Assembly (NCBI GenBank): GCA_027484085.1
Contig: JAIXQF010000010.1
Coordinates: forward strand, 186,970 to 250,969
DNA length: 64,000 nucleotides
Direction of reading: 5' to 3'
DNA from: Actinomycetales bacterium
Lineage (GTDB): Bacteria; Actinomycetota; Actinomycetes; S36-B12; UBA5976
A program made the translations under genes and the position numbers. Of this stretch, positions 17,378 to 31,204 are shown piece after piece. The notes under the pieces are model-generated. The model had not been told where the DNA came from. It saw nothing but the letters and a program-made list of their open reading frames with translations, and ran no database searches. The stretch's first letter is position 1; the number at the start of each line of letters is the position of its first letter.

Positions 17378-17429
17378 TTGACAGTGGAGCAAAAGGGAGT
17401 AATCTGGGACTACGAGGTGACCTGGGGAA
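17378..17429 (+). promoter_or_regulatory. Candidate mraZ/dcw promoter (TTGACA-16-TAATCT) overlapped by phased G-rich pentamers (candidate MraZ operator)
   Basis: TTGACA at 17378-17383 and TAATCT at 17400-17405. Pentamers TGGAG (17385), GGGAG (17395), TGGGA (17405), AGGTG (17415) and GGGAA (17425) recur at an exact 10-bp period. Confidence 0.4.
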
Positions 17430-17459
17430 GGGTTGCCATTGGTTTAGGCGGTGTTTCAG

Positions 17460-17882
17460 GTGTTCTTAGGTACCCACACCCCAAAACTGGACGAAAAAGG
17501 CCGCCTGATTTTGCCGGCCAAATTCCGCGAACCACTAGGCGATGGCCTGGTTATGACCAAGGGTCAAGAGCGCTGCGTAGTCATCTGGCCAAACGATCAG
17601 TTCAATGAATTTGCCGAGAGCTTGCGCCGTCGCTCCCAAAATAATGAAAAGGTTCGCGCCTATACCCGAGTCTTTTTCTCCTCAGCTTTTGATGACTCAG
17701 CCGACAAGCAAGGTCGCGTCACTATTCCTGCTCCACTTCGCGAGTGGGCCGGCCTTGACCGCGAATTAGTTGTAGTCGGTGCTGACACACGAATTGAAGT
17801 CTGGGCAACTGTGGCTTGGAACCAGTACTTAGAGGCACAAGAACCTGGCTTTGCCGCACTTGATGAAGACGTAATGCCATGA
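17460..17882 (+). CDS. mraZ: Transcriptional regulator MraZ
   Basis: (M)FLGTHTPKLDEKGRLILPAKFR plus a second DKQGRVTIPAPLR repeat, i.e. the duplicated SpoVT/AbrB-like halves. I preferred the GTG at 17460 over 17451 because of spacing from AGGCGG. Confidence 0.9.
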   Translation: MFLGTHTPKLDEKGRLILPAKFREPLGDGLVMTKGQERCVVIWPNDQFNEFAESLRRRSQNNEKVRAYTRVFFSSAFDDSADKQGRVTIPAPLREWAGLDRELVVVGADTRIEVWATVAWNQYLEAQEPGFAALDEDVMP

Positions 17883-17926
17883 GTTCCAACCAATTGATCG
17901 CAATCACAACATCAGCTAAAGAAAAT

Positions 17927-18018
17927 GATGCTGCCTTTGGCCTCTGGCTGTTGGCACGATCCTGGCGCACCTTCCCCGGTGCCAGGCTCACCAACGGCCA
18001 GGGACTAAAGGCAGCATC
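17927..18018 (+). ncRNA. 92-nt extended hairpin in the mraZ-rsmH spacer (probably the actinobacterial 'mraW' RNA motif)
   Basis: Three stacked helices. Helix 1 is 12 bp: GAUGCUGCCUUU (17927-38) with AAAGGCAGCAUC (18007-18). Helix 2 is 13 bp: 17942-54 with 17991-18003. Helix 3 is about 8 bp: CCUGGCGC (17961-68) with GUGCCAGG (17979-86). Confidence 0.55.
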
Positions 18019-18036
18019 AAGATTTGAAATTGCGCA

Positions 18037-18990
18037 ATGAATACGTTCACTCATGAGCCGGTATTGCGCCAACGTTGCTTGGATCTATTAGCACCAGCAA
18101 TTAGTGCGAACAACGCAGTATTAGTTGATGCAACTCTTGGGCTTGGCGGACATACTGAATCCGCACTAATTGAGTTTCCTAATCTTCGTGTAATTGGAAT
18201 TGACCGGGATCCAGAGGCCTTGGCGATGTCGCAAGAGCGTCTTGCCAAATTCGCACCGCGAGTTGATTTCGCGCTAGCCGTTTACGACGAGATTCCAGAA
18301 GTTTTAGCAAGCTTGAATATCGAGCACGTGCAAGGCATCTTGTTTGACCTTGGTGTTTCTTCGATGCAACTAGACAAAGATCAGCGTGGATTCACCTACT
18401 CGCGCAATGCGCCACTAGACATGCGCATGGATGGCACAACCGGTCAAACCGCAGCCGACATTGTTAACAATTATGACTTTGCAAACTTGGCTCGAATCCT
18501 TCGGGAATATGGCGAAGAACGATTTGCCGGCCGAGTTGCAAATGCAATCATTCGCGAACGTGAGGTAAAGCCATTCACTAACAGCGACCATTTGGTAACT
18601 GTGGTTCGTGACGCCATCCCGGCAGCAACCCGTCGCACTGGTGGCAATCCTGCCAAGCGAACTTTCCAAGCGCTTCGAATTGAAGTTAATGATGAGCTAG
18701 CAGTACTAGAGCGTGCAATTCCTGCCGCGCTTGGTTGCTTGGACCTTGATGGTCGCATTGTAGTTCTTTCGTATCACTCACTTGAAGATCGCATCGTGAA
18801 GAACGCATTGCGCGTTGGAACTGAATCAACAACACCAATTGAAATGCCGATCATTCCTGAGTCCGACAAGCCATGGCTGCAGTTATTGACTCGTGGGTCT
18901 GAAGCAGCAAGTGAAGAAGAGATTACTGAAAACTCACGCGCTACCTCCGTACGTTTGCGTGCGGCACAGCGAATCGGGGTGGCTGCATGA
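18037..18990 (+). CDS. rsmH: 16S rRNA (cytosine1402-N4)-methyltransferase RsmH (MraW)
   Basis: 317 aa with HEPVL, DATLGLGGH, FDLGVSSMQLD and SYHSLEDR motifs. Confidence 0.92.
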   Translation: MNTFTHEPVLRQRCLDLLAPAISANNAVLVDATLGLGGHTESALIEFPNLRVIGIDRDPEALAMSQERLAKFAPRVDFALAVYDEIPEVLASLNIEHVQGILFDLGVSSMQLDKDQRGFTYSRNAPLDMRMDGTTGQTAADIVNNYDFANLARILREYGEERFAGRVANAIIREREVKPFTNSDHLVTVVRDAIPAATRRTGGNPAKRTFQALRIEVNDELAVLERAIPAALGCLDLDGRIVVLSYHSLEDRIVKNALRVGTESTTPIEMPIIPESDKPWLQLLTRGSEAASEEEITENSRATSVRLRAAQRIGVAA

Positions 18991-19445
18991 GCGCAGTTCC
19001 AGCTCGCACTCCAGCTCTTGCACCAATTCCACGCAAATCTAAAACTATGCGGAGGCTTTCATTAGTAAAGCCAATAGTTAAGCCGATCGTTTCTCCGATT
19101 GCCCAAGCCATCCCAGTCGGAGTTCCACAGGGTCGAGCTAGCAGTCGGACATTCCTATTTGTAATTATCGGAATGATTATTACCGGCATGATGCTGTTGC
19201 TCTATGTAAACACTTTGGCTGCGCAAGCGTCATTCCAAAAGCATGCTTTGCAGATTGAACTAAGCCAAATGACGGCTGAAGAACAAACTATTGCAAGTGC
19301 CGTGGCAGCTGGTGAGTCACCAGGAAACCTATTGATCACCGCACAAAAGATGGGCATGGTTCCAGCCGAGACTCCAGTTTTTCTCCGGCTTTCAGATCGA
19401 GAGATTCTAGGTAAACCAGTTGTGGCTTCAGCGGCGGGCCGATGA
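18987..19445 (+). CDS. FtsL-like septation membrane protein
   Basis: 152 aa with a single TM helix (TFLFVIIGMIITGMMLLLYV) followed by a coiled-coil-like segment. The position between rsmH and ftsI fits FtsL, and both ends overlap the neighbouring genes. It contains a small VKPIVKPIVSPIA repeat. Confidence 0.6.
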   Translation: MSAVPARTPALAPIPRKSKTMRRLSLVKPIVKPIVSPIAQAIPVGVPQGRASSRTFLFVIIGMIITGMMLLLYVNTLAAQASFQKHALQIELSQMTAEEQTIASAVAAGESPGNLLITAQKMGMVPAETPVFLRLSDREILGKPVVASAAGR

Positions 19446-21256
19446 ATACCCCGATGACAGAGCAGCATCAAAATCCACAAGGTCCACAGCGACCTCAGAG
19501 TTCCAACCAAAGATATGTCCAAGCCGGACCAGTTATGATCCCGCTTGAGAGTCCAAAGAAGCGCATTCGATTCATAACTATTGTGTTTCTCGTCGTTATG
19601 TCGCTTTACATGGCACGTTTAGTAGAACTTCAAGTTGTACGCGGTCCAGAACTTGCGGCCAACGCCCAAAACTCCAGATTGCAAACATTAGTGCTGCCTG
19701 CGTTACGAGGAAATTTCACCGATAGCAATGGAATCCCAATTGCAACGACAGTGATGGCAAGAAATGTCACTGTTGATCCAACGTTGATTAAAGACCCAGC
19801 TGGAACTGCTGCAGCATTGTCACCAATTCTAGGAATCCCAGTCGACACGATCATTGAATCCTTAACTGTTGATTCTCGATTCTCATATGTCGCTAAACGA
19901 ATCACGCCAGAGACTTGGAAAGCAGTCGCAGCGCTTGGAATCCCTGGGGTATTCAGCGAACCAACAACAAATCGGGTTTATCCAAACGGATCCCTAGCAG
20001 CCAGTGTTATTGGTTATGTAGGCGCTGAAGGCACTGGTCTTGGTGGACTTGAATATGGACTGAACGAACAGTTAATGGGCCAGGATGGAAAGCTCACGGT
20101 TGAGCGAGTAAACGGTCGTGAAATTCCAACGAGCGAGCGCCAGAGCATTGATCCAGTAAACGGTCTTTCAGTTCGATTAACCATTGACTCAAATCTGCAA
20201 GCGATGTTGGAAAAGTCTTTGGGTGAACAAGTTAAAGCTACGGGCGCTGAAGGTGGCGTAGCAGTAATCATGGAACCAGGAACCGGAAACGTTCTGGCGA
20301 TGGCAACTTTCCCAACCTTTGATCCAAACAAACCATTTGACACTGATGACAAGGCAAAACGAAATACAACAGTGACTGATGTTTTCGAACCTGGCTCGAC
20401 AAGCAAAGTTATGACCATGGCTTCAGTAATTGAAGAAGGCGGAGCTAACCCATCATCGCAGTACACAGTTGAGAATCGTCTAAGTCGTGGTGGTACTTCA
20501 TTCAAGGATTACCAGGATCACAAAACTTTGAAACTTACATTGGCTGGCGTACTTGCTAAGTCAAGTAACATCGGAACAATTTTGGCCGCCGAATCAATTG
20601 GTGAAAAGAAGTTATACGAGTACTTAAAGAAATTTGGAATTGGTAAGTCAACTGGCATGAACTTTCCAGGTGAAAGTGGCGGCAAGTTACCGGACATCAA
20701 TAATGAGAGTGAATGGTCAGATACAACATTCCCAACATTGGCATTCGGCCAAGGCTTGTCGGTCAACGCAGTTCAAGCGACCAGCGTGTTCGCCACAATT
20801 GCAAATGATGGCGTGCGAATGCTGCCCAGACTTATCGCCGGATACTCAAATAGCGAGGGTGTCTATGAACCGAGCCGAGTTGACGAGGGCGTTCGAGTTG
20901 TAAGTGCAGAGACCGCAAAAACCGTGAGGGAAATGCTCGAAGTGGTTGTTTCTGCTGACGGAACCGCAAAAAATCTGCAGATCCCTGGCTACCGCGTTGG
21001 TGGAAAGACTGGAACTGCAAACCGTTACAGCGAAACAACGGGTGGATACAGCGGGTACACATCTTCGTTCATTGGAATGGCTCCAGCCGAAAAGCCTGCA
21101 CTTGTAATGAGCGTCAGTATTCATAATCCAAAGACCAGTACTTACGGCAGTGTTGTCGCTGGACCTGTGTTTAAAGAAGTTATGACTTACGCGCTTGCCT
21201 ACAAAAAGATTCCACCTTCAACCACAAACCCTCCCAAGCTTCCCGTTACGTGGTAA
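19442..21256 (+). CDS. ftsI: Class B penicillin-binding protein / septal transpeptidase (FtsI/PbpB)
   Basis: 604 aa with an N-terminal TM helix and the motifs STSK, KSSN and KTGTA. Confidence 0.88.
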   Translation: MNTPMTEQHQNPQGPQRPQSSNQRYVQAGPVMIPLESPKKRIRFITIVFLVVMSLYMARLVELQVVRGPELAANAQNSRLQTLVLPALRGNFTDSNGIPIATTVMARNVTVDPTLIKDPAGTAAALSPILGIPVDTIIESLTVDSRFSYVAKRITPETWKAVAALGIPGVFSEPTTNRVYPNGSLAASVIGYVGAEGTGLGGLEYGLNEQLMGQDGKLTVERVNGREIPTSERQSIDPVNGLSVRLTIDSNLQAMLEKSLGEQVKATGAEGGVAVIMEPGTGNVLAMATFPTFDPNKPFDTDDKAKRNTTVTDVFEPGSTSKVMTMASVIEEGGANPSSQYTVENRLSRGGTSFKDYQDHKTLKLTLAGVLAKSSNIGTILAAESIGEKKLYEYLKKFGIGKSTGMNFPGESGGKLPDINNESEWSDTTFPTLAFGQGLSVNAVQATSVFATIANDGVRMLPRLIAGYSNSEGVYEPSRVDEGVRVVSAETAKTVREMLEVVVSADGTAKNLQIPGYRVGGKTGTANRYSETTGGYSGYTSSFIGMAPAEKPALVMSVSIHNPKTSTYGSVVAGPVFKEVMTYALAYKKIPPSTTNPPKLPVTW

Positions 21257-25238: not shown

Positions 25239-26678
25239 ATGGCTTCCCCAAATCTTGATGAGTTGAATCGAACTAGCGACTGGTCGCAGGTTCGCGTATG
25301 TGTAGTTGGGCTTGGCGTTGCTGGATTTGCAGCCGCAGATGCACTGATTAACTTAAATGCAAAAGTGATTGTTATTGATGCTGCATCAGGTGAGCGCCAA
25401 AAAGAGCGGGCAACAATCCTGGAAATCTTGGGTGCAGAAATCCGAATGGGTGATGACGCCACACTTCCTGATGAGATTGATTTGCTGGTGCTATCCCCAG
25501 GAGTTTCGCCACTTGCTCCAATTGTTGCGGCCGCACAAGCTGCAGGCGTGCAGATTTGGGGAGAGTTAGAACTTGCTTGGCGACTTCGAGATCCAGCCCA
25601 TCCAGCTCCTTGGCTTCTCGTAACTGGAACTAATGGAAAAACAACAACAACATTAATGCTGGAATCGATTTTGCTGGCAGCAGGCAAGCGAACTGTGGCA
25701 GCTGGAAACATTGGTCGGTCGCTGGTTGAAGTTGTTATGGATCCCACACCTTGGGATGTATTAGCAATCGAAGTAGGTGCACCGCAACTACCGTTTGTTT
25801 ACTCGATGTCTCCGCAGGCTGCTGTTTGCCTAAACCTTGCGCAGGATCACATAGATCTATTTGGATCATATGAGGCCTATCGCGATGCAAAGGCAAAGGT
25901 TTACGAAAGATGCCAGATTGCTGCCATCTTTAACGTTGCCGATGAAGAAACAATTCACATGGTCGAGCAAGCCGAAGTTATCGAAGGCTGTCGGGCTATT
26001 GGCTTTTCAACAGGAATCCCGGACATCTCAATGGTTGGTGTCGTCGAAGAGTTTCTAGTTGATCGAGCCTTCCTAGAAAATCGTCGAGAAGCAGCGCTAG
26101 AGCTTGCAGAAATAACAGACTTAGTGACACCAGCCATCCATAACATTTCGAATGCTCTCGCTGCCAGTGCATTAGCTCGAGCTCATGGCGTAGATGCCAG
26201 AGCAATTCGTGACGGGTTGAGAGCATGGCAACCTGCTCCGCACCGAATCGCTCATGTTGGCACAGTGGCTGGCGTTGACTACATAGATGATTCCAAGGCG
26301 ACAAACACTCACGCAGCTGCCACATCGTTGACTGCATATGAATCAGTTGTCTGGATTGCTGGCGGTATGGCAAAAGGCCAGGATTTCGACGAATTAGTTC
26401 TTGATAATGCGCATCGAATGCGCGCTGCTGTTCTTTTGGGGGTAGATCAGGATCAGATTGCTGCCGCACTGGAGCGACACGCTCCGAATGTCCCAATCCA
26501 TCGCGTAACTAGCAAGGAAACTAATGCAATGGAGTTAGTTGTTGCCCTCGCTGCCGAGTCGGCACAACCCGGAGACACCGTACTTTTGGCGCCCGGCTGC
26601 GCATCTTGGGACATGTTTACTGACTACTCAGCGCGCGGCGATGCCTTTGCAGCTGCGGTCAAAAGGCTTACCGCATGA
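25239..26678 (+). CDS. murD: UDP-N-acetylmuramoylalanine--D-glutamate ligase
   Basis: VGLGVAGFAAADAL Rossmann motif, VTGTNGKTTTTLM P-loop, and the expected position in the dcw cluster. Confidence 0.9.
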   Translation: MASPNLDELNRTSDWSQVRVCVVGLGVAGFAAADALINLNAKVIVIDAASGERQKERATILEILGAEIRMGDDATLPDEIDLLVLSPGVSPLAPIVAAAQAAGVQIWGELELAWRLRDPAHPAPWLLVTGTNGKTTTTLMLESILLAAGKRTVAAGNIGRSLVEVVMDPTPWDVLAIEVGAPQLPFVYSMSPQAAVCLNLAQDHIDLFGSYEAYRDAKAKVYERCQIAAIFNVADEETIHMVEQAEVIEGCRAIGFSTGIPDISMVGVVEEFLVDRAFLENRREAALELAEITDLVTPAIHNISNALAASALARAHGVDARAIRDGLRAWQPAPHRIAHVGTVAGVDYIDDSKATNTHAAATSLTAYESVVWIAGGMAKGQDFDELVLDNAHRMRAAVLLGVDQDQIAAALERHAPNVPIHRVTSKETNAMELVVALAAESAQPGDTVLLAPGCASWDMFTDYSARGDAFAAAVKRLTA

Positions 26679-31017: not shown

Positions 31018-31204
31018 GAAATCTAGATTTCACTGCGCTAAACCTTTGGCATTCTGAACCGACACGCCAACAGTCAATCCCTGTATATATGCGCGGTTAG
31101 CCGTAACTTATACCCACCCAAAGATGAAGAATCTTTAACGCTCAAGATGAGGTTTAGAGTTCGCAACTTTGGCAGCACAAAGCTTGTCTAGAAAGGCAAA
31201 CACC

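Follow-up and report, generated by a model that had tools for sequence, protein, structure and literature searches.

An mraW-motif RNA hairpin at the 3' end of mraZ in a Nanopelagicales genome, with a complementary hairpin loop in the mraZ leader

The mraW motif is an RNA structure at the entry to the cell-wall and division (dcw) gene cluster of Actinobacteria, including Mycobacterium and Corynebacterium, and its function has been unassigned since 2010. A copy in a 64-kb stretch of contig JAIXQF010000010.1 (hereafter the window) raised the question of what such a hairpin does between mraZ and rsmH (mraW). A preliminary description, made from the letters of the window alone, had noted an extended hairpin between the two genes and judged it a likely instance of this orphan motif in an actinobacterium. 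Both points were confirmed by the analysis reported here. The hairpin was found to associate with the 3' end of mraZ, and its terminal loop proved to be exactly complementary to the loop of a second hairpin in the mraZ leader. We tentatively read it as a cis-acting RNA at the mraZ 3' end whose loop is a pairing site and in this lineage contacts the leader loop, tuning MraZ output apart from the downstream genes.

A search with the covariance models of Rfam release 15 gave a match to RF01746 (mraW) at 17922–18027 on the plus strand (69.5 bits, gathering score 50, E = 8e-13). The alignment spanned the full model (positions 1–107 of 107). The search which the preliminary description had named as the check on its assignment came out in its favour. 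RF01746 was the sole Rfam family matched in the window; other families gave merely sub-threshold microRNA-precursor matches, as any long hairpin does, and were rejected. On the minus strand the same model scored 34 bits. The motif has been described as three moderately conserved stems with poorly conserved internal loops and a terminal loop, CUUCCCC, that is highly conserved (Weinberg et al. 2010, PMC2864571 supplement), always preceding mraW, a membrane protein gene, ftsI and mur genes (PMC2864571 supplement). The window copy agreed with RF01746 in score, in the three stems, in the CUUCCCC loop, in gene order and in its actinobacterial host. The sole difference in the window clade was one extra C in the loop (ACCUUCCCCG), which is nothing essential. 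The hairpin truly belongs to the mraW RNA family; it is a known object, one that a routine annotation with Rfam would pick up. As late as 2017 a paper gave the function of the motif as unknown, and no later literature assigning it one was found.

The minimum free energy (MFE) of the hairpin was -67.2 kcal/mol, against -34.2 ± 3.5 kcal/mol for 200 dinucleotide shuffles (z = -9.6), none of which was as good. The three helices of the preliminary description were recovered, its count of about 33 pairs being slightly low against the 38 bp of the fold, and the ends lay at 17926 and 18019 rather than at 17927 and 18018. The 154-nt length given there for the spacer, between the mraZ stop (17882) and the rsmH ATG (18037), was correct. 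The helix was interrupted by a single C/A mismatch (C17941/A18004), which adjoins a conserved CUCUG/CAGGG segment, and by small internal loops. The minus strand of the region folded less stably (-61.3 kcal/mol, z = -7.0), consistent with G-U pairs on the plus strand. No U-tract followed the stem: the next 12 nt were AGAUUUGAAAUU, with at most 3 U in any 8-nt window starting 0–2 nt after the stem. An intrinsic terminator would be a GC-rich hairpin with a U-tract directly behind it. A terminator scan did not call the hairpin, in agreement with the earlier view that it is not a simple terminator.

Comparison with 15 close relatives indicated that the structure is maintained as RNA. The alignment held 30 consensus pairs, with 97% of cells paired and nine pairs changed on both sides, a covariation score reached by none of 500 shuffles; the covariation check proposed for related spacers was accordingly positive. 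When the partner was shifted by 1–3 columns, pairing fell to 21–49%. At five stem positions G-U was the commonest pair, and since the opposite strand would have A-C mismatches there, the plus-strand RNA is the selected object. Two open reading frames (ORFs) crossing the hairpin were considered and rejected. The start codon of a small ORF through the hairpin (17925–18008, 27 codons) was not conserved, and substitutions in both this ORF and one on the minus strand (17722–18072, 116 aa) were structure-preserving.

The loop was then followed through three surveys: 80 genome loci (one genome per species, picked by MraZ similarity), 80 metagenome loci (picked by similarity to a distant MraZ) and six Mycobacteriales loci. 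The exact CTTCCCC heptamer stood 3' of mraZ in 76 of the 80 genome loci, in 78 of the 80 metagenome loci and in every Mycobacteriales locus examined. The exceptions were four Glycomyces genomes, a truncated contig and a single locus lacking the hairpin. Stem length ranged from 17 to >45 bp across loci. The shortest variants (L027 and L028, 17–19 bp) had no second conserved patch, and the Micromonospora motif contained an inserted branch. Seven genome loci had a Y-shaped form, in which one basal stem carries two arms, each ending in ACUUCCCC; the fold of one basal stem with two CUUCCCC-capped arms was computed for L025, L031, L033, L041, L043 and L056. Since the stem varies, the loop is invariant and two-loop forms exist, it is the loop and not the stem that forms the conserved working part. 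The RF01746 model recovered 10 of 20 sampled loci at E < 0.01 (eight above the gathering score), although a CUUCCCC-capped hairpin was present in 19 of the 20, and it missed the two-loop loci L025, L033 and L041 at the same threshold. The mraW family is broader than the Rfam model, which misses many short or two-loop versions.

Versions with two CUUCCCC loops were seen in L025, L031, L033, L035, L041, L043 and L056, and further two-loop loci were L109, L122, L129, L131, L133, L135, L152 and L156. The hairpin was wholly absent from L165 and from the Glycomyces loci L047, L050, L052 and L077, in which the mraZ-rsmH spacer is 13–23 nt long. Three of the four Glycomyces leaders retained the 5' hairpin described below, with a CUGGUG loop in place of the G-run.

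The preliminary description had placed the hairpin upstream of rsmH, which is true but incomplete, because the comparative positions tie it to the mraZ 3' end. The loop lay 27–111 nt past the mraZ stop, except for the second loop of L056 (142 nt) and the loop of L060 (276 nt), and 41–443 nt from the rsmH start. In many lineages the stem began -2 to +8 nt from the mraZ stop, and the distance from stem to rsmH was 1–431 nt. The hairpin associates with the mraZ 3' end rather than with the rsmH start. Published Corynebacterium RNA-seq agrees with this placement: the mraW 5' end of C. glutamicum maps within the motif's 3' end, and in C. diphtheriae the motif precedes the mraW start site. A T-rich tail (five or more T among the following 12 nt) followed only 3 of 70 homologous hairpins, and comparison of the window clade revealed no conserved promoter-like block in the linker between mraZ and the hairpin or in the 3' arm. 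A scan for consensus promoters called none at the hairpin, a result of little weight because it missed the mraZ promoter too. The unconserved linker, the 17 nt left before rsmH and the scarcity of T-rich tails suggest that transcription starting at the mraZ promoter crosses the hairpin to reach rsmH and the essential genes beyond it.

A candidate partner for the invariant loop lies at the other end of mraZ. The predicted mraZ promoter (Table 1) was overlapped by GTGG, AGGG and CTGG boxes at 6-nt spacing, the layout of an MraZ auto-repression operator; MraZ boxes are GTG(G/T) repeats six nucleotides apart (PMC12957436). The block TTGAC(A/G)-GTGGAG-N4-GTGGAG-TAnnnT recurred in nearly all of the 80 genome loci and in almost all of 160 related loci. 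About 10 nt after the -10 box, at the predicted transcript start, a short hairpin presents a loop in which GGGGAAGG (17424–17431) is the exact Watson–Crick complement of CCUUCCCC in the 3' loop, giving eight contiguous pairs. The complement ends 29 nt 5' of the mraZ GTG and is not the Shine–Dalgarno (SD) sequence. On the plus strand of the window GGGGAAG occurred once, in this leader loop. Both strands together gave three matches against 5.8 expected, one being the reverse complement of CTTCCCC in the 3' loop and one lying inside a coding ORF. A second CTTCCCC at 25243 was rejected as another copy of the loop; it lies on codons 2–4 of a coding ORF. The loop-leader duplex was predicted to have -17.3 kcal/mol over 8–9 bp, which no shuffled leader matched. 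When the whole predicted transcript was folded, both hairpins were retained (the leader hairpin in the MFE and the centroid structure) and both loops were unpaired.

The leader hairpin is itself conserved as structure. Across 20 distinct sequences, 96% of cells in the stem were paired and six of the eight pairs had changed on both sides, which none of 500 shuffles achieved; one position showed six pair types. These sequences had been chosen for the heptamer, so that the invariance of their loop is partly due to that choice, which does not apply to the stem covariation. The leader hairpin has no Rfam family and seems to be a previously undescribed element in mraZ leaders of the Nanopelagicales type.

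All 15 members of the window clade had 8–9 complementary nt at an identical offset. In a second clade (clade B: L021, L023, L024, L042, L045 and L075) the leader stem was wholly different (GAGGG/CCCUC) and the loop was the same, and in both clades the leader loop lay 28–32 nt before the start codon. In the metagenome sample, picked by MraZ similarity alone, 25 of 69 distinct leaders had at least 7 complementary nt, against 3.6 expected. Some loci carried a complement elsewhere in the leader. It lay at the mraZ SD in L029, L060 and L158 only, and in the leaders of L092, L093 and L094 GGGAAGUG stood beside the SD, complementary to CACUUCCC of their own 3' loop. One sub-clade had a second GGGGAAG adjoining the mraZ ribosome-binding site. 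The Rhodococcus leader hairpin offered merely GGGAAGG. Pairing with the rsmH ribosome-binding site was also considered and was rejected, none of 45 representative loci exceeding shuffled complementarity; a GGGAAG at that site was confined to the clade of L019, L020 and L022. The loop complement also resembles helix 45 of 16S rRNA, an idea that was dropped, the window holding no rRNA.

Table 1. Features at the mraZ-rsmH junction of the window (position 1 is the first letter of the window).
Feature	Position	Strand	Details
Predicted mraZ/dcw promoter	17378..17407	+	TTGACA 17378-83, 16-nt spacer, TAATCT 17400-05; read directly, function inferred
5'-leader hairpin, mraZ mRNA	17416..17437	+	8-bp stem GGUGACCU/GGGUUGCC, loop GGGGAA closed by U-G
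mraZ coding sequence	17460..17882	+	GTG start 17460, stop 17882; longest ORF from 17451; Pfam PF02381, E = 6e-35
Linker, mraZ stop to hairpin	17883..17925	+	Not conserved; length (8-50 nt) and sequence differ among close relatives
mraW-motif hairpin	17926..18019	+	38 bp = 15 + 13 + 2 + 8; RF01746 match, MFE, covariation
Terminal loop ACCUUCCCCG, 10 nt	17969..17978	+	Contains CUUCCCC at 17971-17977; presumed recognition site
Hairpin base to rsmH start	18020..18036	+	17 nt, no SD; sequence GAAAUUGCGCA, then AUG
rsmH (mraW) coding sequence	18037..18990	+	ATG start; Pfam PF01795 (Methyltransf_5, MraW/RsmH methylase family), E = 2e-106

Several observations weigh against a contact between the two loops. 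The complement was absent from the leaders of Micromonospora, Actinoplanes, Mycobacterium, Corynebacterium and many Nanopelagicales-type clades. Among 47 representative leaders, 10 reached p <= 0.05 and the remainder were random-like. A universal leader partner was rejected on the same grounds, no complement being present in Mycobacterium koreense, Mycolicibacterium confluentis, Corynebacterium diphtheriae or two other Corynebacterium loci. Because the complement is missing from most motif-bearing lineages, the leader contact is not the universal function of the invariant loop. L092, L093 and L094 kept the leader hairpin about 30 nt before mraZ with a loop of GGGCAAAG or GGGAAAAG. The leader hairpin of the window was no stabler than its shuffles (z = -0.56), so that its support is the covariation. 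The shuffle statistics ignore relatedness, and the positive loci came from about three clades on the MraZ tree; the complementarity was moreover noticed post hoc. The G-run of the window clade is in 10-nt phase with the MraZ boxes, and its conservation could reflect DNA binding. The leader loop as a fifth MraZ box was possible in the window clade and failed in clade B, in which it lies 27 nt past the last box and out of phase. A leader contact is at best an additional or lineage-specific use of the motif.

With these reservations, the favoured reading would run as follows. The hairpin would be transcribed from the MraZ-box promoter at about 17378–17405 as part of a presumably continuous mraZ-rsmH-dcw mRNA, and would function as a cis-acting RNA at the point where the mraZ cistron ends. 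Its long stable helix may serve as a rigid stalk presenting the invariant CUUCCCC loop, a putative base-pairing site resembling an anti-SD sequence. The partner in this lineage would be the GGGGAAG(G) loop of the 5' hairpin at 17416–17437 in the same mRNA, and an 8-bp loop-loop (kissing) contact would join both ends of the mraZ cistron. The outcome may be that decay and/or translation of the MraZ mRNA is set separately from that of the downstream division genes, possibly by creating or hiding a double-stranded target of ribonuclease (RNase) III, or alternatively by blocking the entry of 3'-exonucleases. The specific form of this proposal for Nanopelagicales-type genomes, a CUUCCCC-GGGGAAG kissing complex of 7–9 bp in the mraZ mRNA that some clades replace by a GGGAAG-type site at the mraZ ribosome-binding site, is predicted from base complementarity and is credible but somewhat unlikely.

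As a working analogy, the icaR mRNA of S. aureus comes closest: a UCCCC motif in its 3' untranslated region (UTR) pairs with the 5' UTR of the same message, and RNase III cuts the duplex (PMC3868564). Common to both is a C-rich 3' motif with a G-rich complement in the 5' UTR of a regulator's own mRNA, here over eight contiguous pairs. The icaR target is the SD itself, whose pairing shuts out the ribosome, whereas here it is a separate hairpin loop 28–32 nt before the start codon; the two systems are not homologous, and the interaction proposed here is a prediction. As further precedents, the C-rich loops of the actinobacterial 6C small RNA pair with G-rich sites unaided by a chaperone (PMC6486639), and RNase III and PNPase reportedly control mraZ mRNA in C. 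glutamicum (Maeda 2016, as cited in PMC5014011). Less similar is UpsM, an RNA that Rhodobacter sphaeroides processes out of its dcw 5' leader (PMC5089854), which lies upstream of mraZ, is alphaproteobacterial and is unrelated in sequence and structure.

A loop that is invariant across the phylum and has no universal leader partner needs another partner, perhaps a protein. The loop, together with the CUCUG/CAGGG segment and its C/A mismatch, may be recognised by a conserved actinobacterial RNA-binding protein that governs how the mraZ/rsmH junction is processed or translated. This could be an RNase, a protein with a KH or S1 domain, or RsmH, which would then regulate itself. We regard this explanation as rather unlikely in itself, although a conserved protein partner would give just such a 7-nt loop. 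Two separated conserved patches on a rod-like helix and the duplicated loops of the Y-shaped variants, which fit multivalent binding, argue in the same direction, as does the adjacent gene, which codes for an RNA-binding enzyme. However, nothing in the sequence points to a protein, and the substrate of RsmH is the assembled 30S subunit, not a free hairpin. The short variants L027 and L028 dispense with the second patch, and the exact leader complement of the window clade would be left unexplained.

Alternatively, the hairpin may be a stability or processing element without a long-range partner, which blocks 3'-to-5' exonucleases and/or is cut by RNase III, thereby giving separate mraZ and rsmH-dcw messages whose relative half-lives it determines. 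Its very stable helix of about 38 bp exceeds the two helical turns needed by RNase III, and it stands directly past the mraZ stop. In C. glutamicum, RNase III and PNPase are reported to control mraZ mRNA decay, the message being stabilised in the mutants (Maeda 2016, as cited in PMC5014011), and RNA-seq mapped an mraW 5' end at 2,266,932, at the 3' base of the motif (2,267,021–2,266,916). Against this explanation, a barrier or an RNase III site needs no invariant loop sequence, the stem length is free to vary from 17 to >45 bp, and the title of Maeda 2016 places the reported C. glutamicum RNase III cut in the mraZ coding region and not in the spacer. On balance we consider this explanation unlikely.

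It is quite improbable that the hairpin is cut from the mraZ 3' region to act in trans as a small RNA (sRNA), its C-rich loop pairing with G-rich ribosome-binding sites of other mRNAs. C-rich loops act as seeds in Staphylococcus RNAIII and RsaE. They are also the known seed of the actinobacterial 6C sRNA, which pairs with G-rich mRNA sites without a chaperone and on over-expression disturbs cell division (PMC6486639; PMC5014011). The mraW motif shares the C-rich hairpin loop with 6C, the two-loop variants resemble the 6C architecture, and a small-RNA library of C. glutamicum contained the motif. In contrast to the independently transcribed, trans-acting 6C with its two C-rich loops, the mraW motif forms part of the dcw mRNA, has one loop in the window and has no promoter or terminator of its own. 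A 6C Rfam match was not found in the window, nor was a GGGGAAG target apart from the mraZ leader, and the strict linkage to mraZ and rsmH suggests a role in cis.

A factor-dependent attenuator or terminator without a U-tract, limiting read-through from mraZ to rsmH, is slightly less probable still. The hairpin shares with intrinsic terminators and 3' stabiliser hairpins its strength and its position just past a stop codon, and in C. glutamicum the dcw operon has been called as beginning with mraW instead of mraZ. Unlike terminators, the motif lacks a U-tract, with the T-rich tails counted above confined to 3 of 70 hairpins, and it lies inside an operon with essential downstream genes. These must be read through in the window clade, in which 17 nt separate the hairpin from rsmH and the linker holds no conserved promoter; nor would attenuation explain an invariant loop.

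Least probable is a riboswitch, as which the 'orphan' motif is listed among riboswitch-like candidates, or a DNA-level element (an MraZ operator or cruciform), which is suggested by the resemblance of the loop complement GGGGAAGTGG in many lineages to an MraZ spacer plus GTGG box: the hairpin is a single unbranched helix without a multi-helix junction, conserved internal pocket or terminator or SD-sequestering alternative, conserved in its terminal loop and one helical segment while its internal loops are poorly conserved, and as DNA it would contain A-C mismatches wherever stem changes preserve G-U pairs, with the GTGG part contacted by MraZ unconserved in the loop and the spacer-like part invariant. 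Among the functions suggested in the preliminary description (an RNase III site, a protein site or a riboswitch-like element), the riboswitch is the least compatible with the anatomy of the hairpin. The hairpin apex as an MraZ operator was rejected separately, since it holds at most one box-like sequence, the GTG part of which is not conserved while the heptamer is.

The host of the window is an actinobacterium. The nearest MraZ proteins and loci belong to metagenome-assembled genomes of Candidatus Nanopelagicales (94% identity), and the host belongs to Nanopelagicales (acI), an order within the class Actinomycetes, with a G+C content of 48–49%. Lake Mendota series are the source of many of the related genomes. 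MraZ homologues have 140 aa and the N-terminus MFLGTH. In the ORF layout, an FtsL-like ORF comes after rsmH, then ftsI (a class B penicillin-binding protein) and the mur genes, and their stop and start codons overlap; Pfam placed penicillin-binding protein domains in the ORF at 19442–21256. The sole other large gap in this otherwise overlapping dcw cluster is the ftsQ-ftsZ spacer (31018–31168, 151 nt), whose fold was unremarkable (z = -1.0), with no notable structure.

The sequence before rsmH differs among loci. Close relatives have GAUGUGGCGUA directly before the rsmH AUG, unlike the window genome. A conserved GGGTCGA box lies 3–8 nt 5' of the rsmH start in many lineages (L014, L024, L027, L042, L049, L054, L060, L063, L066, L069, L072, L075, L078, L092 and L094), though not in the window clade. 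In the Mycobacteriales loci L081–L087 a DUF3040 gene precedes mraZ, and in three of the loci an HEPN_SAV_6107 gene stands before DUF3040. C-rich CCCCAC repeats, the reverse complement of GTGGGG boxes, occur upstream of the promoter in the examined Mycobacterium and Rhodococcus loci. The records of L009, L011, L018, L026, L041 and L056 are titled Bifidobacterium, Bifidobacteriaceae or Acidobacteria, and these names look wrong. Their MraZ proteins are 64–86% identical to that of the window, and their promoter and hairpin are alike.

That a streamlined freshwater genome, in which neighbouring genes overlap, has retained the hairpin argues that it is needed. The association with the mraZ 3' end, the loop as the conserved working part and the exact leader complement of some lineages go beyond the published description of the mraW motif. 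If the kissing complex is real, it would be the first mechanistic handle on this motif, and the contact between the two ends of the message would be a second bacterial case of 5'-3' UTR communication, one that controls a cell-division regulator.

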